In this document: piece by piece, positions 15,228-60,278 of the stretch
Numbering within the stretch: position 1 is the first letter of the stretch
Layout: every line of letters begins with the position of its first letter
Assembly (NCBI GenBank): GCA_965366815.1
Contig: CBDUGV010000003.1
Coordinates: 741-64,740, forward strand
Direction of reading: 5' to 3'
Length of the DNA stretch: 64,000 nucleotides
Origin: an uncultured Bdellovibrionales bacterium
GTDB taxonomy: Bacteria; Bdellovibrionota_C; UBA2361; SZUA-149
Notes under the pieces: generated by a model
The model's input: the letters and a program-made list of their open reading frames with translations, nothing else
Told to the model about the DNA's origin: nothing
Databases searched by the model: none
Program-made: the position numbers and the translations under genes

Positions 15228-16139
15228 CTACATTTCACTCTCGTCCAAAGCGGTCCGAACCCATCTGTTGCCATGCAGCACATACTTGATAAGTCGGCCG
15301 TTTCTGTCCGGGAGCACCATAGTCCCATCGGGAAGCTCAGGCTCTCCTTGGCCGCAATCGCCAACTACGTCGCAGTGTGTCACCGGACTTGCGGGAGGGG
15401 TTTCACTCCCATTACTTTTCGTTCCCCGCAGTGCGAGCGTGATTTTGCCCATACCTCGGGCGAGTTCTATTCGTTGTGCATCTCGGATGGTGACGAGCAG
15501 GGTTGCTGTTGCTCCTGCGCCGATATTTCGTCGTTTGTTGTCTTGATCCGTACCGTCAACAGAAAGTACTTTTACAAACTCGATAAGCGTCTTCACTGCT
15601 TTTCTGCCTCGTTGGTCCGTGTAGTGAAAAAGAATATCTACCCTGGAATTCGGTACGACATAGCCGTTCACAAGTTCAGTTTGTGTTCCGTAAATTGAAA
15701 CCGCTCGATATCCTGGTGGAATTGGCAGATCCCCAAGGGGAACTTTTTCGCTGATGTCGTCCTGAGAGATCGGAAAGCCAGCGCGAATCATCCGTTTCGC
15801 AAACTTTCCAAGCGCCATATCTTCGTGTGCCGCCGGGATGACCGAAAACGGGATGCGGTCCTTCTCGTACGACTGGAGGCTAAACATATTGGCATCAAGT
15901 CGCGTGCCTGACTCAATGCGGGTTGCGGCTATCAATACGTCGACCATTTCCAATTTCGCAGCCGGTGCATCGCTCGCTGCCGTGACTGCTGCTTGTGTCG
16001 TTTGTCCTCCTCCCAACACCATGTACGTTACAATTGAAAAGAGTGACAATACAATGACGGCTAAACCACTGATTGCAAGAACCATTTTTCGACGAGCACG
16101 TTGTGCAAAAGTCGTATTTGTCGCAAATCCCCTAGTCAT
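15228..16139 (-). CDS. cpaB: Flp pilus assembly protein CpaB/RcpC (SAF domain plus C-terminal beta-clip), lying alone with no other tad genes beside it.
   Basis: N-terminal TM segment, SAF-like region (VDVLIAATRIESGTRL), C-terminal region (RVDILFHYTD...FVKVLSVDG...ATATLLVTIRDAQRIELARGMGKITLALRG). GGAGGT lies 8 nt upstream of the ATG at 16139; the track ORF extends to 16193. Confidence 0.75.
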   Translation of the reverse strand: MTRGFATNTTFAQRARRKMVLAISGLAVIVLSLFSIVTYMVLGGGQTTQAAVTAASDAPAAKLEMVDVLIAATRIESGTRLDANMFSLQSYEKDRIPFSVIPAAHEDMALGKFAKRMIRAGFPISQDDISEKVPLGDLPIPPGYRAVSIYGTQTELVNGYVVPNSRVDILFHYTDQRGRKAVKTLIEFVKVLSVDGTDQDNKRRNIGAGATATLLVTIRDAQRIELARGMGKITLALRGTKSNGSETPPASPVTHCDVVGDCGQGEPELPDGTMVLPDRNGRLIKYVLHGNRWVRTALDESEM

Positions 16140-16322
16140 TCGGATACCTCCATCGGTATATTTTGTGATTGCTAAATAAATTTGCTCGAGCATTTGAATA
16201 GACTGAGTGCTTCGAAAATGGTTCGAATAAAAATATTCTTTCGAAGGGCCTAGTTAAATCAGATCGGATCAGTGTTCCTCGCTACATTTTTTCGAAGTTT
16301 TTGCCGAAAAAATACCTAGCCC

Positions 16323-16357: not shown

Positions 16358-16933
16358 ATGGAGTCATTAATCCCAGAAGAAGAACAGCTCTCTGAGCGCG
16401 AGGTGATTGAGCGCGTGCAGCACGGATCGCGGGAAGATTTTCGCCTGCTCGTGGTGGCCCATCAGTCACGTGTATTTGCAGCGATTCGGAGGCAAGGTGT
16501 TCAATCACATATTGCCAAGGAACTTACACAAGAAGTGTTCCTGAAAGCCTTTCTCAATATTAACTCGTTTCGATTTGAGGCGAGTTTTTCAACTTGGCTA
16601 TTGCGAATTACAATTAACCACACAAGTTCCTATTTTACCTCGAAGCGTTTTCGACAAGGGAAACAGACTATTCATCTGACCAGTGCAATGCATGAAGCGC
16701 ACGGAGAAGAGGACACCGACTGTTACGATCGAGAAGCGCTTGGGCGACTCAAACTGGTGATTGCGGCATTACCACCGAAGTATCGTGAGGTGTTGGTGCT
16801 ATGTGGTTTTGAACAACGCTCCTACCAAGAGATTTCAGATTTGCTTGGTATTCCGGTCGGCACCGTGCGTTCTCGATTGCATAAAGCACGGTGTATGGCG
16901 AAAGAACTCTATTTTCAGCGCAACAACGAGTAG
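16358..16933 (+). CDS. ECF (sigma-70 family, group 4) RNA polymerase sigma factor.
   Basis: Region 2 (VVAHQSRVFAAIRR...TQEVFLKAFLNINSF) and region 4 (YREVLVLCGFEQRSYQEISDLLGIPVGTVRSRLHKAR). Confidence 0.85.
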   Translation: MESLIPEEEQLSEREVIERVQHGSREDFRLLVVAHQSRVFAAIRRQGVQSHIAKELTQEVFLKAFLNINSFRFEASFSTWLLRITINHTSSYFTSKRFRQGKQTIHLTSAMHEAHGEEDTDCYDREALGRLKLVIAALPPKYREVLVLCGFEQRSYQEISDLLGIPVGTVRSRLHKARCMAKELYFQRNNE

Positions 16934-16937
16934 ACCT

Positions 16938-26287: not shown

Positions 26288-26322
26288 GGTTCCCCCAAAA
26301 GCGACTTGTAGTGCGACTAATG

Positions 26323-35500: not shown

Positions 35501-36273
35501 TAGAACCACAATTCGACTCTGTTGATATTCGAGTGGTGTTTGGAAACAATCGTTACTTCTATCGCAAGAACTTGGCAGTAAGTACTTTTGATACGGCATT
35601 TCGAGTCGAGTCGCTCAAAGGAACTGAAACTGTCACCATCGCTTCGCTTGATACCCGGGCGGGCGCTTCGGCTATTGTCGAAGTGTTAAATCCGAATGAC
35701 ACGAGCGCTGCTGCGCTGGTGCAAGTTTTTTCCGAAAATGGTGAGTTTAGAGGCCAAGTGGAGCTGAGCGAGGGCGATCTGCCGCCACGTGCGAGTTTCC
35801 ACGTTATAACTGATACCATTCTTGGGCAAAACCAACGGGGAGTCGCGATTATCACCCCCTTAGTCGGGTCTATCGCAGCGGTTGAGATGGAGTATCATCG
35901 AGACAACCGTGGAGTACTTGAGTTTGCTGCGGCGACACCAGCGGTGAGTCCTGTGGGCGTGGTAGTCGGTGCTGGCTACAATACTTGGCTCGGACAGGTG
36001 GCAGAAGTCATTGTTATGAATCCGTCAACGACTGCGCGGAATGCCAGCTTTGATGTGCTTGGCCAGAGCGGAGAGGTCCTTTTTGGCGGTCTGCCGCTAT
36101 CGGTACCGGCGTCTGGTCATGCAGTGATTCGAATCAATGATTATGTAGCTGCCAATCTCTATGGACAGATACTCGTCCATGTTCCTACCAATGGAAGCTC
36201 TCAACCAACACTGGCTGCAAGAATGCGTCGGGTGGCGGATGGTGCTTGGGTGCTCTCCTTGCCCGTGCGCTAG
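32596..36273 (+). CDS. Large secreted zinc metalloprotease (metzincin): PPC-like domain, two thrombospondin type 3 Ca-binding repeat blocks, and a roughly 450-aa C-terminal domain of unknown function.
   Basis: Signal peptide, HEIGHALGLSHDGD (HExxHxxGxxH), the pre-peptidase C-terminal-like segment (TPTDVDVYAFTTGAGLVSIAIDP...YYLHIDG), and TSP3 repeats (DSDGVPDATDNCPTTPNAGQENFDGDGQGDACDPNDDND and DNCPTIANAGQENFDLDGQGDACDADDDNDGLAD). Confidence 0.75.
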   Translation: MIRRPALCFLSSVLLAFYAFVPVVLADEHAHHLHSDQEASTADIDACRIVHEEKGAILAELSPPIDVNAEPDVEPRGAVVSLAVASAGGAFALHSNPTATKKIFLDFDGHVVSGTIWNSRNGGNDIHAPAFSTDTDITTFSASELARIEEIWRRVSEDFAPFDVDVTTEDPGVAAFTAGRQALRVMISTDVDEASIGGTGNRWYSGAGGVAYYNSWDWTSDTPVWVFENNLGNGNEKYTAEASSHEIGHALGLSHDGDSAVDYYRGHGSGATGWAPIMGVGYYRALSQWSKGEYFEADNTQDDLAIITTRLPYRTDDHGDTNGTATTIVPTGTSIAANGVVTTPTDVDVYAFTTGAGLVSIAIDPYDASDGKANLDIEAKLYTSGGGLVVTSNPADSLNASISETLAAGTYYLHIDGVGKGNLTTGYSDYGSLGAYTISGSVQLGGGGGDTIPPTAAIGSHPDVTVAAGTSYDFTVQFSDNTAINVSTLTTGDTLVTGPNSYSTTASFVGVNNNSNGTPRTATYRITPPGGAWSASDNGTYTISLASNQVLDTSANTALSGTLATFSVSVVDDADSDGVPDATDNCPTTPNAGQENFDGDGQGDACDPNDDNDSVNDSGDCARLDASRWRNRAYPDTDRDGVRESATLKTVACYGTTPPSGYTTAENGPDNCPTIANAGQENFDLDGQGDACDADDDNDGLADTSENESSCPFRLDPDSDDDGQTDGTDPNPCVADEEPELGKRFCSEWNGFLGDTLTGAGMFNVMEVQRKGVGSGARSTPVNVLVTLFEQNGTSREKIGFALAPGEKRDVLVHDMDGFTPLSIGLVCVEHDGPAGEIDGAMIHYNQRRGSYDFSIASAFSAGLLGRQAVPYNTYHPGLAARLEDNDPDDIGQPVLPDRVANWLQISYPPKSGDSRRFHATLTLHDMRGNVMRDENDQEARFIIDMAPGERVDFSAHAYGHSRVGMAVLEPQFDSVDIRVVFGNNRYFYRKNLAVSTFDTAFRVESLKGTETVTIASLDTRAGASAIVEVLNPNDTSAAALVQVFSENGEFRGQVELSEGDLPPRASFHVITDTILGQNQRGVAIITPLVGSIAAVEMEYHRDNRGVLEFAAATPAVSPVGVVVGAGYNTWLGQVAEVIVMNPSTTARNASFDVLGQSGEVLFGGLPLSVPASGHAVIRINDYVAANLYGQILVHVPTNGSSQPTLAARMRRVADGAWVLSLPVR

Positions 36274-36764: not shown

Positions 36765-38909
36765 CTAAGGATGGAGCAGCCGGTGCAAAGCATCGGGATG
36801 ACGCTGCCAATTGTAAGCCACCGGATCATCTGGTGAACTCCCATAGGGAATCGGATACATCCCTTCATCTGAAGTGCCGAGAGCTTCGTAACTAGTAGGG
36901 CTTGGGAGTTGTTCTCGCATGGCATTCCATTTGGCAACTTGTTGGGCAAAACTTCGATCTAGTTGCCCACGGTCGCTATAGAAACGAGAATAGTTCGCAA
37001 GTTCCAACTGCTTGTCCATCCAAAAAAGAGCGAGTAATGGTGTGAGCGCTACTGTTGCGAATAGCAACTTCTTTTTCTTGCCACGCATTGGGAGTTCGGT
37101 CGGTCGTCCAGCTGGAAGAAAGAGCGGTGCCAGCAGCAGACAAACGCCGAGCAGCGATACCGCGTGATAGCGAAGTGAGAGGGAGTACTCTACCCCACCC
37201 CAGTCGTATCTGCCGATAGCAGTGAGCAAGAAGGGTGAAATGAGCACGAGTTGACCGAGCAGCCAATGCCTCCAACCGCCGTTTCTTTTGAATAGATAAT
37301 ACCCGAGTAGTGCGAGTGAGACGCCAGAACTGATCAGCGTCAATGCTAAGTCCTTAAACATCAACTGCGTATTTGGTACATAGAACTGCAACTGGTAGAA
37401 GCCCAATCCCCGCAAAAAGCTGCCAAATTGAGAACCAAAGAAAGTATAGCGCAGCAAAGGCTCCAGGTGAGGCATCGCAATCTCGTCTCGCCCCTGACCG
37501 ATCCCTTGGCGATTGAGCAGGTACGCGACTGCTACAATACCGGCAGCAGCGAGGGTTGCCCCGGCTACCTTCCAAAACTGTTGGCGATACTTCGGGGCAA
37601 AAAGCAGAGCCAAGAGTAGAACCTCAGCCCAAAGCGTAACCCCTCCGCCGAAGCAGAGTGGCGCTGCGATCGTACACGCAAAGAGTGAAAAAAGAAGCCA
37701 GACCCGACCTCCACGCAGATAAGCTAGGGCAGATAGATAGGCTAAGAGACGGAAGCTGATAGAGAGGAGCGTGCTTTGACAGGTTATCCATTGTACTACT
37801 GCGGTTTGAAGTGCGCAGCAGCTAAAGAGACCGCAGGAGAGTACCGCAGCCGCGGTGGACTTGAGTCCGAGTTTTCGCAGCAAGACAAAAAGGAGCGCTG
37901 CATTTGCTGCAAACAAGCCAAAGGTCACCAGTTGGTAGGCGAAGTAGTTGCCGCCAAATAGCCGATATTCAGCCTGAAACAGTGCTGAGAATAGCGGGAT
38001 GAAGTGCTCGTGATGGCTAATGAAAATGCCCTTGATGCCGTGTTGTATAAAACGCTCAAAGAACAGCAGGTCATCTCCGTAGAAGAAGAGATCAAACCGG
38101 TAGTGGACTAAGAGTGATAATCCAGCAGAGACCATACAGGCACTGAAAAATCCTTGAGCAAGTGGCAGCGCGAGGCAGGCAGTGACGACAAGGCTTGCAC
38201 AAAACGCCCAGTGAATAATGGAAGCTCGCTCAGCTGCAAATCGGCGAAGCAAGACCGTCCATTGTGGGACGTCGTAGAAATTAATCCGCTCTCGCAATGA
38301 AAGCCAACCAGCTCCTGGTTCATGATCTACTAAGTGCAAGCGAAGGCGTTCTGTGGGTTCTAGATCTTCTAAGAAATGCCCCATCAAACGCCATGTGCCA
38401 TACCGCTTACCCTCCGCCGGTTGTAGGCGAACCTTTGAGCCGTCCGACTCTCGTTCTATAGCGATATACAACTTATGGGGTGAACCGATGGGTTTGCTCG
38501 CGGCGTATTCGAGCTCCAGATAATTGGCAGCTGGAACAAACCAATCGCTAGAACACGTTGCGACTGCCGCTGGTTTGCCGGGGAACCAGGTTGCAATTCG
38601 TTTGAGTTTGGCGAAGCCGACAGAATCACTGTCAGTAGCGCTGCAGGGTCCAAGATTGCTCCAAGGCACCGAGACGTGGCTGTTGAATGTTCGGTAGAAC
38701 TTTGTATGGGCGAGCTTGTAGGAAACCGCAAACAAGAGTGTTGCGAGAACTGAAACTATCAGCAGCGAGAGATGGAGCCGACGAAACCGGAACGTGCTGA
38801 GCCGAGCGGAGTCGAGAAACGATTGCTCCTCGCATTGTTCGAAGCTTCGTGCGGTATTCTCAGCAACCAAGGGAAAAGGCTCTCTTCGCAAGCATCCCGG
38901 AACCACCAA
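36765..38909 (-). CDS. Large polytopic membrane protein of unknown function (possibly a GT-C-like glycosyltransferase).
   Basis: 714 aa with more than 10 hydrophobic segments; no confidently recognised motif. Confidence 0.45.
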   Translation of the reverse strand: MVVPGCLRREPFPLVAENTARSFEQCEEQSFLDSARLSTFRFRRLHLSLLIVSVLATLLFAVSYKLAHTKFYRTFNSHVSVPWSNLGPCSATDSDSVGFAKLKRIATWFPGKPAAVATCSSDWFVPAANYLELEYAASKPIGSPHKLYIAIERESDGSKVRLQPAEGKRYGTWRLMGHFLEDLEPTERLRLHLVDHEPGAGWLSLRERINFYDVPQWTVLLRRFAAERASIIHWAFCASLVVTACLALPLAQGFFSACMVSAGLSLLVHYRFDLFFYGDDLLFFERFIQHGIKGIFISHHEHFIPLFSALFQAEYRLFGGNYFAYQLVTFGLFAANAALLFVLLRKLGLKSTAAAVLSCGLFSCCALQTAVVQWITCQSTLLSISFRLLAYLSALAYLRGGRVWLLFSLFACTIAAPLCFGGGVTLWAEVLLLALLFAPKYRQQFWKVAGATLAAAGIVAVAYLLNRQGIGQGRDEIAMPHLEPLLRYTFFGSQFGSFLRGLGFYQLQFYVPNTQLMFKDLALTLISSGVSLALLGYYLFKRNGGWRHWLLGQLVLISPFLLTAIGRYDWGGVEYSLSLRYHAVSLLGVCLLLAPLFLPAGRPTELPMRGKKKKLLFATVALTPLLALFWMDKQLELANYSRFYSDRGQLDRSFAQQVAKWNAMREQLPSPTSYEALGTSDEGMYPIPYGSSPDDPVAYNWQRHPDALHRLLHP

Positions 38910-39202
38910 AGAGAACCATAGTTGCCCTGCTTAAAAGTGGTGTTCCAATAGGTATCATCGGGCCTCTTGTGGACGAAGTGGTTGGGAAAGCACATTTCAT
39001 ACTGAAGTCCTCACCTATCATAAGGCTGGGGTGACCTCAAATCCAGCTAGTTTCAGCTCCGGCGGACTGACAATAAGGCTGAAATATTAGGGAGTTACCC
39101 GGGATGTCGGCAGCTGCTTGCAGCCTCATTCACATTTAAGTTCTCCAGCCTAAGAGTCGATTATTTAGGTAGGGCTGATCTCAGTTGAAAGCGAAGAAGA
39201 GT

Positions 39203-39637
39203 ATGATGAAGTTTCCTTTTCGGGCGTATGTGTTCGCGGTGTTCTGCTGCTCGTTTGTGGTGGCGCCCTCATTCGTCATAGCTGAGACCTCTAGCAAAAG
39301 CACTGAACGTGTTCAGACGGAGGGCGAGGAAGTCTGTCCAGAAGAAGAGGCAGCAGCTCAAGCTTCCAAGACAGAAGAAGAGGCAGGAGAGACTGAGGAT
39401 CTTCAAAAGAATACCACGAAAGTTATTCGACCATTTGGCCCCGGCCTCAAGAAATCAAATTCTGAAAAGACAGTAGGCAGTCGTTTTAGTCGTTATAGCG
39501 GCAACGACGGATATGAGAATCATGATGGCATTGTTGATGTCGCCCGAGTCGAACGGAAGCGCCGCAGGCAAAGTGCCTCTGCGAGGACGGCATCATCGGC
39601 AAGTCGTGCAGGCCGTTCCAGAAAACGGCGTAGTTGA
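39203..39637 (+). CDS. Secreted low-complexity protein with a Glu-rich middle and Arg/Ser-rich C-terminus.
   Basis: Signal peptide MMKFPFRAYVFAVFCCSFVVAPSFVIAE and a C-terminal RKRRRQSASARTASSASRAGRSRKRRS. Coding status uncertain. Confidence 0.35.
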   Translation: MMKFPFRAYVFAVFCCSFVVAPSFVIAETSSKSTERVQTEGEEVCPEEEAAAQASKTEEEAGETEDLQKNTTKVIRPFGPGLKKSNSEKTVGSRFSRYSGNDGYENHDGIVDVARVERKRRRQSASARTASSASRAGRSRKRRS

Positions 39638-39692
39638 CGTCGAAGATAGAAGTGACATTCGCCGGTGGCTGATGTTTTAGAGTTTCAAACGT

Positions 39693-40532
39693 ATGGATTT
39701 GAAAGATACAAAAGAACAGGATATCGCGTCGACTTCGACCAGTGCCGTTCGCAGGCAGATTGCGATAAGTACTGGGGTTGTGCTGTTTCTGATCTTAGGT
39801 ATCTTGGTCGCAGTTGGTTTTCGCAACCCGCGCGTTGGGCTATCAGCTTCGTTGGAACAAACGGAGAGTTTGCAAGTTCCTGAGCCCGTCGCTGAGCCAT
39901 TGGTGAACCCACTTGAGGAGTGCGTTCATCGCATGCCGATTCCGTTCGGCGGAAAAGCGAGAACGAAGTGCTTGCTCAATTGCTATGCACCTGGAGTAGA
40001 TACGCCTTTGTGTGAGAAGGTTTGCGACCAGCGCAATGCCGAGAACTTTGCCGGGAGCCTTCTTTGGCAAGGACACTCGCCGAAGCCGGTTGCAGAGAAA
40101 ATTGCCACTGACTGCCTTGATCGAAGTCTGGCGTCGAAAGAACCAGTCTCCCGGACAGAGTGGGCCGACAAGACTGCAAAGATTGTAGAGTTTCTAGAGA
40201 TTACTGAAAAAGATGTAGAGCTCTATCAGCGAGAGGATCTCTCTAAAAGATTTTCGCAGTTTGAAAAAATCGATGCTGTGTTACCGAATCTAGAGAAACC
40301 GTCCTCGCCTCAACAAAAATTCTTACAACAGCTCAACGCAGTTCTGTGCCTACGTCAATCTATTGCAACAACTCAGTTAGCAGTACTCGAAGCAGCAGAA
40401 AGCTCAGATACCTTCAGTGAGCGGTTCTATCGATCAGTAGAGGAGACACTGTTGTCTTCGGCGCGGGTGCTTGAAGCCCCCCTCTCAGCCGCTTATATGG
40501 CAGCAGTCGTTGATCAGAGTCCGGACGCCTAG
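39693..40532 (+). CDS. Hypothetical membrane-anchored protein.
   Basis: Single N-terminal TM segment (ISTGVVLFLILGILVAVGF) then a Cys-containing periplasmic domain; no known domain. Confidence 0.4.
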   Translation: MDLKDTKEQDIASTSTSAVRRQIAISTGVVLFLILGILVAVGFRNPRVGLSASLEQTESLQVPEPVAEPLVNPLEECVHRMPIPFGGKARTKCLLNCYAPGVDTPLCEKVCDQRNAENFAGSLLWQGHSPKPVAEKIATDCLDRSLASKEPVSRTEWADKTAKIVEFLEITEKDVELYQREDLSKRFSQFEKIDAVLPNLEKPSSPQQKFLQQLNAVLCLRQSIATTQLAVLEAAESSDTFSERFYRSVEETLLSSARVLEAPLSAAYMAAVVDQSPDA

Positions 40533-40536
40533 GGAG

Positions 40537-41376
40537 ATGATGATGCAGCCTCACATGCGAATCATACAACTATTTGCACCAAGCGCTCTACCTATACTTA
40601 TACTCCTCGGTTTGCTCGTAGTACTTCCAACTGTCACCTTTGCTGATCCAAACACGAAGTGTTTGGCTGAGGCAAAAGGAAGAGACATTCGTTGGGATAA
40701 AGCCTGGCAGGCAGATCGTTCAGATCACGACGTGGTGTATCGCGTTGAGAGCATAAAGCGTGTGAAGTATCCACCGGCAATTGTCATTGAACTTGCCTCG
40801 ACTGGACCGGCTAAGAAGAAGAAACGCAAGGCTCGGATCACACGGGAGCATGTTGAGAGAATGTTTTGCCAACGAATGGTCGATACTGGCAGAAAGAAAG
40901 GCGTGTTGGTCGCCTATGGATCGGGTATCAGCTATACGACCCGTGGAAAAGAGATAAACGTAAGTTACAATAGCCGAGAGGTTTCGCCGAAAGATTTAGT
41001 ATTTCGAAAATTCCATGGGGGAGCGTGGGTGCCAGCAAAGGCTCGAGTTGGTGAGAAACAGGTGGTATGCAAGCTGCCAACCATATCATATGCCTGTAGT
41101 GAAACGGACAAGAAGTCCTTGGAGCGCCACCGCAGCGCAACGCGGCCACATCACCATCCGTATTATAAGATGATAGTACCCAATGGATTCATCAGACACA
41201 CTGCTAATGGATGGAAAAGAGCTGAGCCACTTGGTCTTCCAGTCGATGCGCTTATGAGTGAGTGTCAGGTGGGTAACGAAACGTACTCTTGTTTAGCTGA
41301 GGAGAAAAAGAAACACGAAGTTGACCTCCTCACTCTTCAAAAACAATTAGAGATTGAACAGAAAATCAGCCGCTAA
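40537..41376 (+). CDS. Hypothetical secreted protein.
   Basis: ATG triplet at 40537-40545 just after the upstream stop, AGGGAG immediately upstream, signal peptide (RIIQLFAPSALPILILLGLLVVLPTVTFA), Lys-rich patch (KKKKRKAR). Confidence 0.4.
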   Translation: MMMQPHMRIIQLFAPSALPILILLGLLVVLPTVTFADPNTKCLAEAKGRDIRWDKAWQADRSDHDVVYRVESIKRVKYPPAIVIELASTGPAKKKKRKARITREHVERMFCQRMVDTGRKKGVLVAYGSGISYTTRGKEINVSYNSREVSPKDLVFRKFHGGAWVPAKARVGEKQVVCKLPTISYACSETDKKSLERHRSATRPHHHPYYKMIVPNGFIRHTANGWKRAEPLGLPVDALMSECQVGNETYSCLAEEKKKHEVDLLTLQKQLEIEQKISR

Positions 41377-41478
41377 CTCTAAAGATTTATGGTTTTTCGG
41401 CCGAGGATTAAGCTTGTTGGTGAGCTGCACGTACTCATGTGCAGTGTTGGTTCATGTACACATCGGTTGGTTTCTATC

Positions 41479-41958
41479 ATGAAAGTAAGGTTCCTGATCC
41501 TTTCAATATCGGTAATGTCTCTCATCGCAGCAATGGGAATTCCCAAGACCAGCTTTTCGCAAGGAATGACGGGCGTAGAGGACATGCGAATGAGTAGTTT
41601 GCAATTCGACTCATTTCGCTTGGCACACTTCGCGGTGGATAAAACACCATTATACATGCTGCCGCTCGACGGGGTTCGGATCGATAGGGTAACGTATGAT
41701 GGGGCTAAATTGGATTCTTCGGCTCGAGCGGCTTTGGAAAAATCGATCAAGCGATTAGTCGCCTGTGGCTATCAACCAAGCGCAAAAGTGCAGCTTATAG
41801 GACAGGAAGACGAGGTCTTGTCTTTTGAAGGCGCTATGGGCTTAAACTATAACCCAGAAGGTGAAGTGCTTTGGGAACAGTCAGCGCAAGAACAGGAAAC
41901 TTCATCTGAGTTTCTCGCGAGCTGTATATACCACCTTTCAGGCCAAGACCTCGTGTAG
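41479..41958 (+). CDS. Hypothetical secreted protein.
   Basis: Signal peptide (MKVRFLILSISVMSLIAAMG); no known domain. Confidence 0.4.
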   Translation: MKVRFLILSISVMSLIAAMGIPKTSFSQGMTGVEDMRMSSLQFDSFRLAHFAVDKTPLYMLPLDGVRIDRVTYDGAKLDSSARAALEKSIKRLVACGYQPSAKVQLIGQEDEVLSFEGAMGLNYNPEGEVLWEQSAQEQETSSEFLASCIYHLSGQDLV

Positions 41959-48780: not shown

Positions 48781-51546
48781 CTAAAAGAACTTTCCTGTCT
48801 TCTTAGGTAGATAGAATTGGCCTATCGGGCCACCGAACGCGTAGTATTGCGTCGCTCCATTTCGGTTGTTGATATACCAGTTGCCGGAACGGAATACTGT
48901 GATGTCGAGTAGTCCGTCGCCGTTAAAGTCTCCGACGATAGGTAAGTCACCGAGAGCCGCAAGACCCCAAGGGATTGCTGTCAGATTCTCAGTATCCTTT
49001 GTCAGGAGATACCAGACTCCGCTGCCGTTTGCGTCCCAGGCCATCCAATCTGCTTTCCCATCAGAGTCCCAGTCACCAGGGACAGGAACCATGCCGTTGA
49101 GACCCCACTGCCGTGTGGTGAACGGCTCAGAGGCGCCATTTGGATAGCTCGAGTTAAGCACATACCAAGTACCATCTGACGGACGCCAAACAGCTGGGTC
49201 GGTCTTTCCATCACCATCGTAATCGGCAGGTACTGGAATATCTCCAGCGAGCCCCCAATAGTAGGCAACAGGATCTTCCGGGTTGATTGCCCAGATACCA
49301 ATACCTAAGCTGTCGTCATAGACCGCCAGTTCATCGAGGCCATCGCCGTTGTAATCATTGATTACCATGTTGTGCGATGCGGCACCCCAATATCGAGCAT
49401 AGACACCGCCCGTACTGGAATAGATTACAATGTGAAGCGCCGGGAAGCAGGTAATGCAGGTAACTCCTCGGTCGATCTTTCCATCGCCATCGAAGTCTCC
49501 TCGAATTGGTCGATAGTTATAGTCAGCCCAGACAAACTGCTGAAAGCCTTCTAAGGATCGGAGGTCGTAGAAGATACCCCATACGCCCCAAACAGATGGC
49601 TCACTTACGCCATCACCATCCCAGTCCCAATCACGGATTGCAAGGCGAGGATCTGGCGCGCCCGGAACATATGCTCCTGTCTTTACATGAACTGAAGAAT
49701 AGCGGCGAGTTGTGTTCGTGCCGTCATCAACCTCTACATAGATATAGTAATCAGTGTTTGCTGGTAGTGAAGAGGTGTTCCAGGTAAATGACTTATTACC
49801 TGCGGTCTGGTTGTTCAGGGTCGCAATGAGCGTTCCATTGAAGCCAGTATTGTCCGTGTCGTAATACAAACGGACGGTAAATGTACTGCTGTCCGCATCA
49901 GCGACCGAATATCTGATAGTAAAACGATCTCCTGGTGCTCGGTTTTCACCGACGAGCTTTGCGTAGTCCAAGAAGGTCCAAACATATTGTCCTGCAAGGG
50001 TAAATTCACCTGGATCGAATCGAAAGTTTGCCAAACGATAGTACGATTCCCAAGCGGGACCTCTTCCAAGGTTGTTGACATCAGCCATATCGAGCCAATA
50101 GGTGTTCATTCCTGGATACGTAGGGAATGCCCAGGTCTCCATTCCGTCACCCACGACATCTGTGTTCCAAGCGACAAATCGCGCGACCCATCCATCCCGG
50201 ATACGATCGGCAACCGTTGGAAACAAGGTCGCATCATGGCCGAAGCGAATTACCGCATAGCGGTAATGGTTCGGATCAATCGAACTGGTATTCAAGCGAA
50301 ACTGCACATCACTCTCCAAATTCCCCAGACTGCTATACGGAGGTTCTGCTTGTGCTTGAAAACGATATCCACCTTCAACAGTGGATGAATCTGCGACAAA
50401 GCTCTCGTTGATGAACTGTCGCAACACTTGTAGGTCACCGAGATTTTCAATATCAACTCCGCTGGGGTCCATATCCCAAGGGTTGCCAACTTCGACAGTG
50501 GCATAGTCGTCACCAGAAGTAGGAGAGGGAGAAGTGATATACACACTTGGCTTTGAAGTTACCCGAACACGGGCCGAGTAAGCAGTGCGAAGCGGCGAGC
50601 CGGTGAACGATCCACCGACGTGTCGCTGCAACTCAACATAGAAGTAATGATCTCCTGGTGGAAGAATCGCAGATGGTATCGTGTGTGAACCTGGATCAAT
50701 CCCCTTTCCATAGCGGGCGAGGAGTGTTCCGTTGAATCCACTTGCGTCGGTGTCATGATAAACCGAAACAACGTAGCTCGAGTTGATACCGCTGGAGTTC
50801 CAGTCAATCACGATATTTGGAGCCGAGTTCGGATCGACAAGGCGAATCCAATCAAATTGCGTTACAGAGCCTGCCGAACCGAAAAGAGAGGGGTCAATTC
50901 GTAGCGCGTGGATGTTGTTTGCATTCCAAGCTCCCTGAGTAACTTCGAAACTATTGCTGGAATTTGCAAGATCGAAATCGTAGATCTTGAAACCAGTGTA
51001 GTTGTTGTTGCTGTCGGAATGGTACCAGCCGTCAAAACTAGCTCCATTTGGACTAGAGGGTACTGGCCAAAGTCCGGTATTGAGATCCTTTCTCGATTCC
51101 CAATAGACGGCGAAGGAACTTCGATTCGTTTGATTAAGTCGATAGGCCAGTCGAGTGTACTTGGTTCCATCGATTTGGTGATTGATTCCATACTTCGGGA
51201 GCGTTCGATCTCCAGGTAGTGCTTCAGCGGAAGAAAGCTTTTCGGGCGCGCTGATATTTGGGAACACCGGAAAGACATATCCACCCTGTGCGGAGAATGT
51301 TCCCTGCCAAAGGCCATTGGTCGCAGTCACACTTGTGCCAACGAAGTTCTCTTCCCAACCAATCATATATCGATTGAAACCATCAGCTGGTTGGTCGAGC
51401 ATGTCTGAGAAGTAGTCATCGCCCTCAGCCACAGTTTGGTTTGAAAGTGGCCCTTGAAGACTAATTGACTGCGCAAATGCCGTTCCTGGCACGCAGAAGA
51501 ATAGAGCAGTGAGTAAAAAGGAGAATGGTAAAAACCGTAGCTTCAT
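48781..51546 (-). CDS. Large secreted protein with an internally duplicated N-terminal region and C-terminal FG-GAP-like repeats.
   Basis: Signal peptide. Duplicated segments (VVSVYHDTDASGFNGTLLARYGKG and TVRLYYDTDNTGFNGTLIATLNN). At least five FG-GAP-type repeats (DFDGDGKIDR, DYNGDGLDELAV, DYDGDGKTDPAVW, DWDSDGKADWMAW, DFNGDGLLDITVF). Confidence 0.65.
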   Translation of the reverse strand: MKLRFLPFSFLLTALFFCVPGTAFAQSISLQGPLSNQTVAEGDDYFSDMLDQPADGFNRYMIGWEENFVGTSVTATNGLWQGTFSAQGGYVFPVFPNISAPEKLSSAEALPGDRTLPKYGINHQIDGTKYTRLAYRLNQTNRSSFAVYWESRKDLNTGLWPVPSSPNGASFDGWYHSDSNNNYTGFKIYDFDLANSSNSFEVTQGAWNANNIHALRIDPSLFGSAGSVTQFDWIRLVDPNSAPNIVIDWNSSGINSSYVVSVYHDTDASGFNGTLLARYGKGIDPGSHTIPSAILPPGDHYFYVELQRHVGGSFTGSPLRTAYSARVRVTSKPSVYITSPSPTSGDDYATVEVGNPWDMDPSGVDIENLGDLQVLRQFINESFVADSSTVEGGYRFQAQAEPPYSSLGNLESDVQFRLNTSSIDPNHYRYAVIRFGHDATLFPTVADRIRDGWVARFVAWNTDVVGDGMETWAFPTYPGMNTYWLDMADVNNLGRGPAWESYYRLANFRFDPGEFTLAGQYVWTFLDYAKLVGENRAPGDRFTIRYSVADADSSTFTVRLYYDTDNTGFNGTLIATLNNQTAGNKSFTWNTSSLPANTDYYIYVEVDDGTNTTRRYSSVHVKTGAYVPGAPDPRLAIRDWDWDGDGVSEPSVWGVWGIFYDLRSLEGFQQFVWADYNYRPIRGDFDGDGKIDRGVTCITCFPALHIVIYSSTGGVYARYWGAASHNMVINDYNGDGLDELAVYDDSLGIGIWAINPEDPVAYYWGLAGDIPVPADYDGDGKTDPAVWRPSDGTWYVLNSSYPNGASEPFTTRQWGLNGMVPVPGDWDSDGKADWMAWDANGSGVWYLLTKDTENLTAIPWGLAALGDLPIVGDFNGDGLLDITVFRSGNWYINNRNGATQYYAFGGPIGQFYLPKKTGKFF

Positions 51547-54417: not shown

Positions 54418-56475
54418 CTAGCCTTCGCTGACCTGGACCAAAATAAAAGGATTTTCACCTAAGACGACGTTCATGTATTCGTCTATCTGCTCGACCATCG
54501 TGCGGCAAAGTGGATCTTCGGTTATTCTTTCTTCGCTATTGTCACACTGCACTTTCGGTGTGCATTCATCCGATGGCGGACGAATGGGGCCAAAGAGTCC
54601 CTGAGTTGCCGCTGCAACTTCATAAACAGCTGTGTTCGCCTCATACCAGGGATCGACAGTGGACATTCGGTTATACGCTTCTCCCAAGGAATTGAACTTA
54701 TCTTCGTTATATCCACCTTTGACGTACGGTACATTCTCTTTCCGGGCATCAAAGTCACTCAGACAATCACCGACGCCACTCTCGTCGAGCGTGCGTTCGA
54801 CCGTATGCGGAGCAACAGCGCCACCAACTAGAATCCAGTGAATCGGAACATTTCGCTCGCTGAGCGCCTCGTTAACGAAGGTGTACAAATCTTGTTTCGC
54901 CTGCTGATAGTATTGCAAGGTGTTGTTGCAACCAGGGGTACATCCTGAAAGCTGATTGGGAAAATCGTCTGGATCGTAGCAATGACGACAGTTAAACACG
55001 CCGTCACCGATCGACACAATAAAACTCGATGCAGAACCATCGGGGTTGATCTCCAGAAGCTGTTGCATCGCTTCAGATAAGGCAGAAATAGTGTCAGTGC
55101 TAAAAGCCTCCGAACCTGCTGGAATTAAATTGTGCCGTAAGAGAAGCTCATATCCACGCAGATTCTGATCTTTCAAATCTTCGGAGGTGATACCAGGTGG
55201 ATCGTCTTGAATCGGTCCAGTCACATCAAAATTGGTGAGATTCTTCAAATAATCAAAATCGTCGGTTGGCTTAATCACTCCAGTCCAGGGCATGCGAGAG
55301 TTATAGAAAATCATGCATAATTTATCGCCGGCGACCTGACGTTTTTCAAAAGTTTCAATTGCGCGGTTGAGCCCTCGAAAGACGGTGCGGAGTGGTTCTG
55401 GTCCAAGCTGCGTCGCATCGCGGTACACATCCGCCCGATACCAGCGGCCGTCATTCCCCACATTCGGATTGGCATCAATCACCACTTGATAGCGCGGATC
55501 AGAGGCCGGATCGGGGTGAAGCGGGTAGCGTGTTCGGTCGTAGTCGCCATCACCTAAGCTTTTCTTGAGGCGATAGTCATCGTAAAAGTGCATGGTTTGA
55601 TATTGTTGGTCCGTCAGGTCGACGAAAGGAAATCCCAAGAATGCCGCCCACTCGACAGAATTTTGTGGCCGTGGTTGACCATTGCAAACAGCGGAGGGAG
55701 GGGAACTCTTGGAAAGTTCATTACTGCAAAGAAAATTGTAATGTTCGGTTTGATAAAAATCTTCACTCACCGATTTATTGTCAGATTCGAGGAGAAACGT
55801 TGCTTCGCGACCTCGCCCGCCGGTCGGATCATCGTTTTGCTTGGTTGTCGTTCGACTTGGATGTGTTTCTCGAATCATCGAGAGCGACATATCGACCAGA
55901 AAACAGCCATGTCGCGGCACGATACTGGAGACGGCTCGCACATGTACTGGGAAGGATTGAATGCCAAACAGCCAACGGCCAAGTTTCGTTGTGATGCCCT
56001 GGTACATTGAACCGGTAATCCGATATGCCGTGACCTTTGCATCTGCATCGTTCGGATCGGAAGGTACAAAGCACGGATAGGCACTGTCATCCGAGCCGCA
56101 GCTCTCATCAGAGTCTTTGGCAGTGAGCCAAACACCTGGTTCAAGCAATGCTCCTGATGCAGAAGGGTTGTCAGAGAGCTCGCCATCTTGATTCCCGGAT
56201 GAACTATTCATCAGCAATAGGTTTTTCTCCGAGACTTTCTGTGCGCGTGCAAGTGCGTCGCTAACCTTATCTGGAACGGTCTCCGCTTTGCTGGAGATAT
56301 GAGCTTCGAGTGCTGCGAGCACTGCCAGTCGAGCATAGTGCTGGGTCTCTTCACGAGACGCTGCTGCAAGTGAAAGGTCGACCGCAAAGGCAACAAAGCT
56401 GAAAAATACGACGAGCAGCGACGCCACTAGTACGAGGATTGCTCCTTGTTCGCTCTTACCTTTCATCTCTAGCAA
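54418..56475 (-). CDS. TadG-like pseudopilin with a von Willebrand factor A domain.
   Basis: N-terminal Tad_N-like helix (EQGAILVLVASLLVVFFSFVAFAVDLSLAAAS), a vWA MIDAS motif (GCFLVDMSLSM), 685 aa. Confidence 0.55.
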   Translation of the reverse strand: MLEMKGKSEQGAILVLVASLLVVFFSFVAFAVDLSLAAASREETQHYARLAVLAALEAHISSKAETVPDKVSDALARAQKVSEKNLLLMNSSSGNQDGELSDNPSASGALLEPGVWLTAKDSDESCGSDDSAYPCFVPSDPNDADAKVTAYRITGSMYQGITTKLGRWLFGIQSFPVHVRAVSSIVPRHGCFLVDMSLSMIRETHPSRTTTKQNDDPTGGRGREATFLLESDNKSVSEDFYQTEHYNFLCSNELSKSSPPSAVCNGQPRPQNSVEWAAFLGFPFVDLTDQQYQTMHFYDDYRLKKSLGDGDYDRTRYPLHPDPASDPRYQVVIDANPNVGNDGRWYRADVYRDATQLGPEPLRTVFRGLNRAIETFEKRQVAGDKLCMIFYNSRMPWTGVIKPTDDFDYLKNLTNFDVTGPIQDDPPGITSEDLKDQNLRGYELLLRHNLIPAGSEAFSTDTISALSEAMQQLLEINPDGSASSFIVSIGDGVFNCRHCYDPDDFPNQLSGCTPGCNNTLQYYQQAKQDLYTFVNEALSERNVPIHWILVGGAVAPHTVERTLDESGVGDCLSDFDARKENVPYVKGGYNEDKFNSLGEAYNRMSTVDPWYEANTAVYEVAAATQGLFGPIRPPSDECTPKVQCDNSEERITEDPLCRTMVEQIDEYMNVVLGENPFILVQVSEG

Positions 56476-56492
56476 TCAATTCCTCTCTCAAA

Positions 56493-58451
56493 TTACTCTG
56501 GGCGAAACAGTCCGTCATCGGTCTTAATACAAGATTGTTCTGCGCACTCAGGAGGTCCACACCATGCTCCGTCATAGAGGACTGGCTTGTCAGGTGGGCA
56601 AATGCAGAGACAGCTATTGACGTTGAGCGCACCCCCGTGGCAAGCCAGGTTGCCAGGGCAGGCACAGCGATTTCCAACGGCAACTTTTGGGTCCGGACAT
56701 GTTTGACACCTGCAGTTAGACTTGAGGATTGAATTCGAACCACAACTGTCAGGAGTGAGGTCGCACACACAGCTGTTGCCTTCCGGCCTGGTGTTTGGCG
56801 GACAATCCGTGCAAGCACAGTTAGCGTCGTTGCGAATTTGACCAGCTGCGCAGGTATTGGTGCAACGGCAGGAACCGTTTACAATTTCCTTTCCGTTTGG
56901 ACATGAATAACAGGAGCACGTACTCGAATTCAATAATTGGTTCCCAGGACACTGTCGGTTACAGATGCATCGTGTGCCTTCGCCAATGAATCCGTCGGGG
57001 CAGCTGACGCACGAACAGCTCTGCTGATCGAGACGCTGGCCTTCCGGGCATTGCTTGTTACACACTCACCAGAGACCCCAAACAGGGACATGATCGGGCG
57101 GGCAAGCATCACAACGGCATTCCGACAGATTGAGAATTTCTGTTTGTTCGTTACAAGTTCCCCAAGCCTCACAAACACAAGAATTTCCGACTTTGGTGGT
57201 TCGGGGCGGACAAGGCGTGCAGCGACAGTTAACATAGTCGATGACCTCATTTTCTGCGCATTCAACATCACACACACAATTGTTGTTCTTTACCACTTTT
57301 GGTGGAGCACAGGATTCGCAACGACATTGGCTCGCGTTTAGATACTCACCCGCGTTGGGGTCGCAGTCTGCTTGGCAGACGCAGGTTGTATGTTGATCAT
57401 TTGCAACAGTTGCTCCTGGGCAGTTAAAGCATTTACAGTTAAGGAGATCTACAATCTGCTTTTCGCCAGTACACTCATTCTCTGTTATAAAATTAGCCGG
57501 GCAGCTACAAGAAGTCCCTTCTTCGTTTGCCATTTCTTGATTTGGGCAGTCGATGCAGGCGCAGTTATTTTGATCAAATATCTGATTCTCGCCGCAGCTC
57601 GCTTCTTCCGCGGTGGCAAACTGACAGTTGGTGCATCTACCAGAGTTATCTGGCATGAGAAAATTATCTCCGGGACATTCGCAGGTAAACGAACCATCGG
57701 GTTGTTCAACGTAGATGAGCCCTTCGCGACAGGAACAGACACCTTCTTCGCTTTCAACCTTCGACCCGTCGTCGGGATAGTCTTTACAGGGGCAAACGGT
57801 AGTTCCTTCTTCCCCGGCCGCGACAGCATCATTCACACAGTCGATTCGTTTGGGGAACGAAGGAGCAGAGCGTCGCTCTCGAAACCCAGAAGCAAAGCCC
57901 GACACTTGCAGAGGTCCCAAGAACCAGAGATAGGGCCGTACTTCAGCCCGTAAGGTAACTTCAATTGGTCGCTCACGTAGTTCAGCCGTAAGTGACGGGC
58001 CATTCGGAAGCTCTGCATCAAACGAATACTTGGGATCTGCAGTGTCCCCCTTTTTGTAATACGCACGTATGTCACTTGCGCCCAACATCAACTCTACTGC
58101 GGGCACGGTGTCGTCTCCGCCAACAAAATACATCGAGCTGTTCGCCGCCTTATCACCGATCATCGTGCGAAGGGGCATCTGTCGTGCAGTGGTCAAAACT
58201 GAAGTGATCGCTGATTCACGGCGAGATCCACAGGCAGACTGGTCTCCATCTGGCAAAAAGCGACAGTCGGTATCGAGATCTTCAACCACGGCCGCGAGCG
58301 ATACTGCTCGATTGGCCGAGCTATTGAGAATAGCTCGAGCTGTGAGGTATCGAGAAAAATCCATTAGGCCGAGCGTGAATAGAATGAGTAGCGGTAGAAC
58401 GAGTGCGAATTCCCAAATGGTCGCGCCATCCTGGTCGTTTTGTAGTCGCAT
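56493..58451 (-). CDS. TadE/TadF-like pseudopilin N-terminus fused to about 450 aa of tandem Cys-rich repeats. The reading frame is interrupted by one in-frame TGA at 57066-57068.
   Basis: TadE motif (IWEFALVLPLLILFTLGLMDFSRY). Repeats alternate CxCxxCP and CxCxxxC. Track ORFs 57066..58451 and 56493..57065 are in the same frame, separated only by TGA. The TGA aligns with a conserved Cys of the repeat (W*VCNKQCP versus RCICNRQCP). So this is either a selenocysteine codon, a nonsense mutation (pseudogene), or a sequencing error. Confidence 0.55.
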
Positions 58452-58466
58452 GAGCCCGGCTTTATC

Positions 58467-58934
58467 TTATCCAGCGTTGGCAAATAGGTATGGGCCGGTA
58501 GCTTCCGCTCCGAGATTTCGAAGCGAACCGAATTGTTCGAAAAATGGTTCGAAACTCAATTGTAGCCGCACCCGTACCTCTAGTTGATCATTGGCGTTTT
58601 TGTACAGCTCAGTCGAGAGACCTGAAACTGAAGTTCCCGGCACTCCATAGCGGTCGAGTAGGAATCGTACACGGTTTTGCACTTCGTAATGACCCTGAGG
58701 AAGAGAACGGTTGGCGGTATCGTGGTAACCCATCTCCAATGCACTATGGGAAACAGCGTACCTCGCCCCTTCGTAAACGACACGCCGCACATTTAAGTAT
58801 TGGTTTGCCGCTCTCCCTAGATCGACCGTTGCTGATACTAATAACAGTAAGAACGGCAAGGTAATAGCAATTTCGAGGAAGGCGTGTCCGCGCTCGTTAT
58901 CATTATCTCTATGTAGGTTGGACCTAAACATCAC
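58467..58934 (-). CDS. TadE-like pseudopilin.
   Basis: HAFLEIAITLPFLLLLVSATVDLGRAANQY is the TadE family N-terminal motif. 155 aa. Confidence 0.6.
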   Translation of the reverse strand: MMFRSNLHRDNDNERGHAFLEIAITLPFLLLLVSATVDLGRAANQYLNVRRVVYEGARYAVSHSALEMGYHDTANRSLPQGHYEVQNRVRFLLDRYGVPGTSVSGLSTELYKNANDQLEVRVRLQLSFEPFFEQFGSLRNLGAEATGPYLFANAG

Positions 58935-59135: not shown

Positions 59136-60278
59136 CTATCGGTTGAGGACTGCCCGAACACCGAGCAATAGTGTGCGCAGGGGCTTTATCAAGTAGTAGA
59201 GGGCAAACAGCCGATCCGGAACATTCACATCCCAATCCGAATCATGCGGTATGCACATTCGACCCAAGACATAGCGGAATTTCGCAGCAGGCCTCTTGCG
59301 CAGGCGAAGGTTGATTCTAGCGAAATCCAGTGCCGAATATGGTCGGCCTGTGCGCAGTTGATGCTCAATACTCTTGGCAATTGCTTGAAGTGTTGCATCT
59401 TGATCCCAGCGTTCTTGTATGGAGGCTGGGATCTTTGCTGAGAGAAGCTTGACGCTTAGCAGAAAAGGCACGGCAAGGAACCGACCTAGCTCGGGATGCA
59501 ATGTATAGGTTTGTATATAGTTCCAGTCGAGATCGGCATTATCGACTATCATGCGAATGTCGAGCAGATACTTCAACTGTAACCACAGATCCTTGCTCCC
59601 GTGGATGCACCCCCAAATGAGCGCGTCCTCTGCCGACATGGTTTTTACGTAGCGCTCTTCGATTCGAACTTCAATCGCTCGAGACCATAGACTCTTCAGC
59701 GCTCCTGGCAGCGCGTATTGCTTCTCTATCAAAGCCCAATGAAGATCGAGTTCCATTACATTCTGTTTTCTCCGCAGGACTATCGCGTGTTGCGTCTTGA
59801 ATTCTGATTCTTGCTGAGCCGGGGTGAGTGGATTCTTCGGGACATAGCCAAGTTGGGATAGCAATCGAAGCGCATCTGCCCTATCTCCAGGTTGCACAAG
59901 TAAGTCTAAATCAGAATAATCTCGAGCCTTGCCCTCGGGGTAGGCCAGTTCAGCGAGAGCCGGCCCCTTAATACAAAGGACCGGAATCAGTTGCTCTTCG
60001 AATGCAGCGAGTATTCTGAGAAGTTCACCGCGAATAGTCAGCCCCAGCGCGATGCTCTGACGGGGCTCCTCAGCTAGCAGGGTGTCCTTGTTGTTGAGCA
60101 CCCGGGCAGTCGCCAGGGACACTCCATGAAAGGCGGCTAGTTCGAGCAATTTTTCAACAGTGCAAGAGTCACTTGGTAAAACAGATTCACGACTTTTTTC
60201 ATCTGCAAAAGCGAGCAGTGCTTCTCGCAACATCTCGAATTCAGCGCTCGTTGCAGCCATAGACTCTCTTAGTAACAA
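59136..60278 (-). CDS. Nucleotidyltransferase-family protein of the kind common in polysaccharide loci.
   Basis: 380 aa; weak match to the 'nucleotidyltransferase family protein' seen in exopolysaccharide (EPS) and capsule clusters; context only. Confidence 0.4.
   Translation of the reverse strand: MLLRESMAATSAEFEMLREALLAFADEKSRESVLPSDSCTVEKLLELAAFHGVSLATARVLNNKDTLLAEEPRQSIALGLTIRGELLRILAAFEEQLIPVLCIKGPALAELAYPEGKARDYSDLDLLVQPGDRADALRLLSQLGYVPKNPLTPAQQESEFKTQHAIVLRRKQNVMELDLHWALIEKQYALPGALKSLWSRAIEVRIEERYVKTMSAEDALIWGCIHGSKDLWLQLKYLLDIRMIVDNADLDWNYIQTYTLHPELGRFLAVPFLLSVKLLSAKIPASIQERWDQDATLQAIAKSIEHQLRTGRPYSALDFARINLRLRKRPAAKFRYVLGRMCIPHDSDWDVNVPDRLFALYYLIKPLRTLLLGVRAVLNR

Follow-up and report, generated by a model that had tools for sequence, protein, structure and literature searches.

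What are three genes for Tad-type minor pilins doing inside a polysaccharide locus, with none of the machinery that builds a Tad pilus beside them? The question is raised by a 64-kb stretch of contig CBDUGV010000003.1 (its 64,000 nucleotides are called the window below), in which three co-oriented genes occupy 54418-58934 on the minus strand, with spacers of 15 and 17-26 nt between them. The original prediction, made from the sequence of the window, had described three consecutive minus-strand genes, and all three were found where it placed them. They encode proteins of 155, 652 and 682 aa, the second size being that of the long TadE-type protein read uninterrupted. The small TadE-type protein has 155 aa when started from GTG and 154 aa from the ATG at 58931, the start chosen by gene callers. 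For the TadG-like protein, the ATG at 56466 is used by gene callers and on record, and a TTG at 56475 would add three residues. The parts of the cassette are as follows.

58467..58934, minus strand: small TadE-type pseudopilin (Pfam TadE and conserved leader motif).
57069..58451, minus strand: long TadE-type pseudopilin, N-terminal 461 codons, the part that is open here (Pfam TadE, alignment of seven orthologues, repeat parsing).
57066..57068, minus strand: in-frame TGA, codon 462 of the long TadE-type gene (comparison with sister contigs).
56493..57065, minus strand: remainder of the long TadE-type gene, 190 codons and stop in the same frame (Cys-rich repeats and conserved C-terminus).
54418..56466, minus strand: TadG/CpaL-like large minor pilin, 682 aa (Pfam Tad_N, AlphaFold model, Foldseek, conservation of the metal-ion-dependent adhesion site, MIDAS).

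With a probability of roughly 70%, we read the triad as an operon-like cassette for a tip or initiation complex of minor pilins, belonging to a Tad (type IVc) pilus whose motor, platform, secretin and major Flp pilin would be encoded elsewhere in the genome. On sequence and fold criteria, its products belong to the TadE and TadG/CpaL families; no NCBIfam model matched any of the three proteins. A stand-alone pseudopilin module with a domain of the von Willebrand factor A (vWA) type, working with a Tad or a type II secretion system (T2SS) machine encoded elsewhere, had been proposed before. The Tad half of that proposal gains from Pfam matches, leader motifs, the MIDAS and 11 orphan loci, and the T2SS half is kept as a rival.

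Both TadE-type proteins exceed the Pfam gathering cut-off for TadE (PF07811, 22.9 bits), the small one (58467..58934) with 32.4 bits, which upholds the TadE assignment first given to this 155-aa protein, and the long one (56493..58451) with 42.0 bits. Orthologues of these genes at other loci are likewise annotated TadE. The leader of the small protein ends ...NERG / HAFLEIAITLPFLLLL (motif ERG/HAFLEI) and that of the long protein reads ...QDG / ATIWEFALVLPLLILF (motif QDG/ATIWEF). Both leaders are of the Tad class III G/XXXXE[F/Y] type, with Gly at -1, Glu at +5 and a hydrophobic helix after it. Class III prepilin motifs, which the original prediction had left to be confirmed, are present in both TadE-like N-termini, and at seven loci all 14 TadE-like proteins, small and long, keep G/xxxxE[FMI] (7/7 for orthologues of the small protein). 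The small protein contains no Cys and probably corresponds to the shortest subunit of a tip trimer (TadE/CpaJ/KilM-like). A six-frame scan of the whole 64 kb for G-x4-E-[FYMILVA] ahead of a hydrophobic stretch returned the two TadE genes only. The window therefore contains no Flp candidate or further pseudopilin, and no leader motif was found in the small open reading frames (ORFs) upstream of the triad.

The TadG-like protein matches Pfam Tad (PF13400, here Tad_N) with 22.8 bits (cut-off 22.3), and eight of 12 TadG-like homologues match it too. The TadE and Tad_N assignments, which low profile scores could have overturned, all lie above the Pfam thresholds, Tad_N marginally. The N-terminus, EQG/AILVL, has no Glu at +5. 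In 112 aligned homologues, whose identity to the query is 24-59%, Gly8 is kept in 104 and Glu never occupies +5. A word-indexed search returned 11 homologues of this protein, and an exhaustive profile search 1521 at E<=1e-3 and 394 clusters (50% identity) at E<=1e-30, nearly all of them full-length (600-800 aa), metagenomic and unnamed.

An AlphaFold2 model built on the 112-sequence alignment (pLDDT 92.2, pTM 0.90) supersedes an earlier run on 12 sequences (pLDDT 75.7, weaker Foldseek matches). It shows a 52-residue N-terminal alpha1 helix (7-58), a second helix and a four-stranded, pilin-like beta-sheet, followed by a Rossmann-like domain. In this domain, D192-x-S194-x-S196 closes strand 185-192, T457 stands before helix 459-473 and D488 closes strand 480-487, so that in the model the residues lie after beta1, before a helix and after beta4, the canonical topology of a MIDAS. 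The five positions are conserved at 97-99% in the same 112 sequences (D192 in 111, S194 as S/T in 112, S196 as S/T in 111, T457 as T/S in 109 and D488 in 111). The DxSxS loop is followed by an insertion of about 150 aa, and Cys residues occur in the C-terminal region. When the whole 682-aa model was compared with the PDB by Foldseek, whose targets are single domains, the top ~50 matches were all vWA domains. They included BatA/BatB, TRAP, ITIH1, factor B, ANTXR1/2 and the CD11b I-domain, together with the pilus tip adhesins GBS104, PitA and RrgA and the vWA minor pilin PilB of S. sanguinis. Probabilities were mostly 0.9-1.00, a minority being lower, and TM-scores (template modelling) were ~0.45-0.53 on the isolated domains. 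Pfam VWA_2 matches two of 12 TadG-like homologues (best E = 2e-4), and a search of PDB sequences with the family profile gave nothing useful. The model thus points to a divergent but genuine vWA domain with a functional-looking MIDAS. Of the earlier description of 54418..56475 (685 aa), the Tad_N helix holds, as does the vWA MIDAS by fold and motif, but not a match to Pfam VWA.

The homologues P0006, P0007/P0008 and P0011 carry long insertions after D488/C493 (columns ~600-730 of alignment A1). These include dockerin-like Ca-binding DxNGDG loops, and Pfam Dockerin_1 was found in 3/12 TadG-like homologues. The distal face of the protein is a hotspot of variable insertions.

Counting the window, the cassette was found at 11 distinct loci, in the form either of a triad or of a pair of long TadE and TadG-like genes. 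Besides the window, the following were compared.

L003/L004/L005: 163 + 485-493 + 694 aa, beside thiolase and alanine racemase, the small gene being divergent; PGI-DsbD lies upstream, 2.1-6.1 kb from the small TadE gene.
L006/L007: 157 + 592 + 718 aa, beside DnaK and an amino-acid permease.
L009 (metagenome-assembled genome, MAG, of an uncultured Bdellovibrionales): 157 + 597 aa + partial, neighbours as in L006.
L008 and L010 (both from MAG SZUA-149): two separate triads, on short contigs.
L011: triad, beside transketolase, VKOR-DsbA and PEPCK.
L015: 155 + 474 + 688 aa, beside purK/purE.
L016 (closest relative, 59% identity): 177 + 523 + 691 aa, beside YhbY and unknown proteins.
P0100 contig: tandem pairs of long TadE and TadG-like genes, 983+754 and 1045+755 aa, among metabolic genes.
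P0080 contig: tandem pairs, 731+712 and 728+717 aa, beside ispH and gcpE.
L017: one pair, 571 + 632 aa, beside CsrA and RNR.

The order small TadE, long TadE, TadG-like is kept at nine loci (window, L003, L006, L008, L009, L010, L011, L015 and L016), and the cassette genes are closely spaced or overlapping. Their neighbours are unrelated from locus to locus and mostly housekeeping genes, with polysaccharide genes at none of the other loci. Tad machinery was in view at 0/11 loci, so the synteny comparison suggested by the original prediction finds the cassette orphan at every one. Since neighbours vary and machinery is in view nowhere, the cassette is a self-contained unit for which the orphan state is normal.

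Several side observations concern these loci. The two triads of MAG SZUA-149 have diverged (L008 and L010 are 46% and 30% identical to the query), and the tandem duplicated pairs of P0100 and P0080, both from sample ERR4592245, lack the small TadE gene and represent a two-gene variant. Two triads in one MAG and tandem pairs fit the idea of interchangeable tips. Genes for disulfide handling recur near the Cys-rich cassette: PGI-DsbD is found in L003 (1852-5729), the same pair lies in the window at 24677-28692, 26 kb from the triad, and a VKOR-DsbA fusion (L011, 3849-5084) is encoded ~3 kb upstream of the L011 triad. This proximity could be coincidence or a folding requirement. L003 and L005 are one locus on two contigs (JADMIO011246850.1 and JADMIO010075646.1) of GCA_016307145.1, an assembly whose contig numbering exceeds 1 million and which is probably a host or metagenome assembly with a bacterial associate and redundant contigs.

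Gene structure, Pfam membership, leader motifs, the vWA fold, MIDAS conservation and a conserved cassette consistently apart from tad machinery are shown by the analysis. How such a cassette would work, from processing through trimer formation to tip location, partner machine, ligand and biological role, we infer. The N-terminal hydrophobic helices would insert all three proteins into the inner membrane, where a prepilin peptidase (TadV/CpaA-type or a shared PilD) would cut both TadE-like proteins after the conserved Gly and expose xxxxE[F/I]. The three alpha1 helices would then bundle as a heterotrimer with the TadG-like subunit, which like GspK and CpaL has no Glu5, on top. Polymerisation of Flp under this primer by the Tad machine would carry the complex to the distal tip of the pilus. 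There the vWA domain would present its MIDAS, the long TadE-like subunit would form a disulfide-rich stalk whose length varies with its six-Cys repeats, and head and stalk together would bind a ligand on a surface or another cell. Because the host is probably a relative of Bdellovibrionales, the target may be prey.

Against a Tad tip cassette weigh the marginal Tad_N score of the TadG-like protein, barely over the threshold, the absence of a Pfam VWA match to it at E<=0.1, and the Foldseek E-values, which run from 1.8e-3 (best) to 3e-2 and are all above 1e-3. To these must be added the TGA at 57066-57068, which divides the middle gene into 461 and 190 codons, and the fact that the ~73 kb of this genome that were read show no Flp pilin, TadA/B/C, RcpA or TadV.

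Some of the same facts would suit a vWA complex that, like BatA/BatB, is independent of any pilus and held in the cytoplasmic membrane by N-terminal helices, serving metal-dependent binding or scaffolding in the periplasm or at the surface and forming no filament. The best Foldseek matches are indeed the vWA domains of Bacteroides BatA/BatB, pilus machinery adjoins none of the 11 loci, and the TadG-like protein combines its marginal Tad_N score with the lack of Glu5. We nevertheless consider such a complex unlikely, given that the two Pfam TadE members among the three proteins strictly keep G/xxxxE[FMI], a prepilin processing motif expected of filament subunits and not of static anchors, and that the model contains a pilin-like alpha1 helix and beta-sheet module. 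Lack of Glu5 in the cap subunit is, moreover, what tip pilins show as a rule, GspK and CpaL among them (PMC11870444).

The middle protein raises the separate matter of whether the cassette is intact in this strain. An alignment of seven orthologues shows that the leader is followed by a conserved module of ~210 aa ending ...GFRE..S.P..DC.G.P. Tandem six-Cys repeats of 33-42 aa each come next, of the form C-x-C-x2-C-P-x7-9-C-x-C-x3-5-C. This species has ~9 of them (72 Cys), the first 4.5 preceding the TGA, which sits at the fourth Cys position of repeat 5. Orthologues have 431-652 aa and 34-72 Cys, so that repeat number varies. The repeats have no tandem structure at the DNA level and no meaningful Pfam match (a trivial CXCXC, 16 bits), and a PDB sequence search with them returned nothing. 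The earlier description of 56493..58451 as TadE-like with Cys repeats is thus borne out in both respects, but it had read through the in-frame TGA.

Two independent sister contigs of the same species, L001 (a 200-kb ENA contig, ERZ25043444 NODE_26, 99.86% identical to the window over 19.6 kb) and L002 (99.95% identical), have TGT (Cys) at codon 462, and in them the gene is called as a 652-aa protein. The window differs from L001 at 28 positions, 24 of them within genes. Both differences in the middle gene are non-synonymous, C462* and P294Q (57571), and the other 22 genic differences are all synonymous except two. A word-indexed homologue search with the middle protein (NCBI, ENA) returned solely a 461-aa copy identical to the truncated reading, which presumably derives from the window's own source assembly. 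Selenocysteine at the TGA was considered and rejected, as the downstream 80 nt hold no fold resembling a selenocysteine insertion sequence (z = +0.89 against shuffles) and the sister contigs have TGT. The TGA is therefore a nonsense single-nucleotide polymorphism or an assembly error.

The truncation may impair the cassette in this strain, and one could go further and see a decaying pseudogene cluster in which the TGA marks loss of function. The stop removes 190 aa and with them a C-terminus that the close orthologues L006, L008 and L009 share, and the two non-synonymous changes of the middle gene are unlike the differences counted in the other genes, 19 of 21 of which are synonymous. Decay is quite unlikely all the same: the other two triad genes are intact and protein-identical to the sister contigs, a 461-aa product falls within the orthologue range and might still work, one base of a metagenome assembly may stem from an error or from a minority allele, and strong constraint acts on the whole family.

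If the triad is a filament cassette, it might still serve another type IV filament machine, whether a T2SS, a type IVa pilus or a further member of that group. Prepilin peptidases and minor pilins can be promiscuous, PilD processes Flp in B. bacteriovorus, and at one distant locus the tandem pairs have a T4P-type N_methyl pilin gene ~5 kb upstream. Such a partner is very unlikely in view of the Pfam matches, which are to TadE and Tad_N and none to N_methyl or T2SS pseudopilin families, and of the leader, which is Tad-type G/xxxxE[F/M/I] without an N-methyl-Phe motif. The composition TadE + TadE + TadG(vWA) is the Tad signature, and the genome possesses cpaB, listed here.

15228..16193, minus strand: CpaB/RcpC homologue (TIGR03177 pilus_cpaB, Pfam RcpC).

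This gene scores 114 bits with TIGR03177 (cut-off 71) and 67 bits with Pfam RcpC. It is, as the original prediction held, the only other Tad component in the window, with coordinates of 15228..16193, and lies ~38 kb from the triad. Its presence suggests a genome with a Tad system of dispersed genes. The gene adjoins an ECF sigma/anti-sigma pair, the sigma factor at 16358-16933 and a putative anti-sigma factor at 16761-17807 whose C-terminal part is weakly CpaB/RcpC-like (26 bits), possibly an unusual case of regulators paired with a pilus alignment protein.

The remaining Tad machinery is absent from the neighbourhood. A Pfam scan of the ORFs between 699 and 63410 that reach 150 aa or more found no T2SSE/TadA, TadB/C, secretin or prepilin peptidase, in agreement with the earlier statement that canonical tad genes do not flank the triad. 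Nor do they begin just past 64 kb, where the original prediction had seen a possible objection: on L001, the 9.4 kb that follow the right-hand end of the window hold a Wzc-like ATPase, a 1156-aa unknown protein, an acetyltransferase, glycosyltransferases and an ABC exporter, and no Tad machinery. Within the window, the ORFs comprise paa genes, beta-oxidation genes, PGI, DsbD, two-component systems, secreted proteases and the polysaccharide locus. The triad is flanked on one side by a methyltransferase and a UDP-glucose dehydrogenase, and on the other by NTP_transf_5, Wza and Wzz-like genes.

That the triad belongs to the polysaccharide export locus (wza/wzz/wzc, UDP-glucose dehydrogenase, glycosyltransferases) as an anchor, organiser or co-regulated adhesin, as the surface-polysaccharide/adhesin alternative of the original prediction would have it, might be suggested by its place among methyltransferase, UDP-glucose dehydrogenase, NTP_transf_5, Wza and Wzz-like genes and by the extension of polysaccharide genes past the window, but is extremely improbable: this context is found in this species only, and no homologous locus shares wza/wzz/methyltransferase/NTP_transf_5, L016 (59%) and all the others having unrelated neighbours (YhbY, DnaK/ArgG, thiolase/alanine racemase, transketolase/PEPCK, purK/purE, ispH/gcpE, RNR). 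A functional link was rejected on this synteny, and because no other cassette locus shares the polysaccharide neighbourhood, we take it to be incidental.

Other features of the window deserve a brief record. The NTP_transf_5 gene upstream of the triad (59136-60278) encodes 374-380 aa in the window and L001 and 328 aa in the sister contig L013 (1145-2131), which reflects start or length variation between strains or assemblies. Adjoining the polysaccharide genes, 48781-51546 encodes a probably secreted 921-aa protein with FG-GAP/VCBS repeats. At 32596-36273 lies a probably secreted 1225-aa protein with thrombospondin type 3 repeats and weak matches to reprolysin-like metalloproteases. Six ORFs at 36765-41958 and 9969-12374 (714, 150, 279, 301, 189 and 801 aa) have no Pfam match at E<=1e-3. 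Four of them are consecutive plus-strand genes (39185-41958), and the 714-aa and 801-aa ORFs, the two that were scanned, have no NCBIfam match at E<=0.1.

For this window alone, the finding is an ordinary one, with an odd context that is incidental and one gene interrupted. An orphan TadE/F/G cassette is an arrangement already known from Myxococcus, Caulobacter and Bdellovibrio, and specialists would not be surprised by it after the papers of 2025-2026. What sets the present case apart is that its TadF-like subunit carries a stalk of six-Cys repeats, that its genes strictly travel as a set and that the unannotated family is so large. Hundreds of unnamed cassettes, several per genome, are a useful lead. 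Tentatively, the clusters, at least 394 in number, could represent widespread, self-contained and relocatable tip cassettes of uncultured Bdellovibrionota relatives, in which the vWA/MIDAS head and the six-Cys stalk of varying length set specificity for prey or substrate, multiple or tandem cassettes supply interchangeable tips, nonsense mutations act as on/off switches and disulfide folding is dedicated (DsbD, VKOR-DsbA); we hold this broader picture to be possible but doubtful. If the triad is indeed a Tad tip cassette, the 2025 idea of adaptable tips for Tad pili would reach beyond Myxococcota to a large family known only from metagenomes, and annotation could follow the rule that a TadE-TadE-TadG(vWA) cassette without nearby machinery is a pilus tip module rather than a tad locus that has broken down. 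Studies of how Tad pili recognise surfaces or prey have two concrete targets in the conserved MIDAS and the variable stalk of Cys repeats.

Comparison with known systems supports reading the triad as a Tad tip cassette. Caulobacter CpaL combines a pilin-like module with a vWA domain split by a beta-rich insertion, and its MIDAS consists of D160/T162/S164/T470/D515. The usual signature at +5/+6 is missing from it, its gene stands apart from the main pilus cluster, and a tip position together with CpaJ and CpaK is predicted for it (PMC11870444). With reference to CpaJ/CpaK/CpaL and to TadE/TadF/TadG of A. actinomycetemcomitans, the MIDAS of the TadG-like protein (D192/S194/S196/T457/D488) parallels that of CpaL, is likewise split by a large insertion after DxSxS and goes with the same absence of the canonical Glu5/Tyr6 signature. 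The two layouts are almost the same. Unlike canonical TadG/CpaL proteins, the one described here has no Pfam VWA match, the similarity lying in N-terminal Pfam motifs and the comparison with CpaL/TadG being by description. Unlike the Caulobacter and Aggregatibacter-type sets, the three genes here keep together and lie apart from the machinery at every locus, and, unlike canonical minor pilins, the second pseudopilin bears a C-terminal array of ~9 six-Cys repeats (72 Cys).

In M. xanthus, the Kil Tad-like pilus has four Tip cassettes of KilL/KilM/KilN (TadE/F/G-like) proteins, three of them in separate clusters (Herrou et al. 2025, PMC12075869). These cassettes are disulfide-rich and interchangeable, and are required for formation of the Kil pilus and for prey killing; Tip-like complexes have also been predicted in Bdellovibrio and Bradymonas, and the Tip1-4 hidden Markov models of the same authors match Myxococcota only (PMC12075869). 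Likened by description, Kil Tip1-3 and the cassettes reported here are both three-gene sets of short, extended and very large TadE/F/G-like proteins, placed away from the machine and present several times per genome. Both are disulfide-rich, the Kil lineage is predatory, as the present one probably is, and the variable distal domains of the Kil tips have been proposed to set target specificity. The distal domain here is vWA/MIDAS, whereas that of KilN has no PDB analogue, and the gene order is L-N-M in kil cluster II as against M-like, L-like and N-like here.

The tad genes of B. bacteriovorus are spread over several loci and include a lone tadG needed for efficient prey invasion, its depletion impairing invasion (bioRxiv 10.64898/2026.07.08.737194). 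The dispersed genes of the present lineage resemble that situation, and the two lineages are probably related (L009 comes from an uncultured Bdellovibrionales MAG). The tadG of HD100 is described as lone, whereas the TadG-like gene here is always preceded by one or two TadE-like genes. A degenerate-pattern scan of GTDB species representatives with two peptide patterns returned four loci only, none of them from B. bacteriovorus, which argues that the B. bacteriovorus TadG is not a close family member.

Further afield, S. sanguinis PilB, PilY1/PilC and the Gram-positive RrgA/GBS104/PitA place a vWA domain with a MIDAS at the pilus tip for adhesion or mechanosensing, as is predicted here. They differ in belonging to T4a or sortase pili with other assembly modules, and share no sequence similarity with the proteins of the triad. 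The original prediction had treated orphan status as an anomaly; Myxococcus Tip1-3, Caulobacter cpaL and the lone Bdellovibrio tadG are precedents for it, and with these published exceptions, location inside a tad locus is a typical but not an obligatory feature of such genes.

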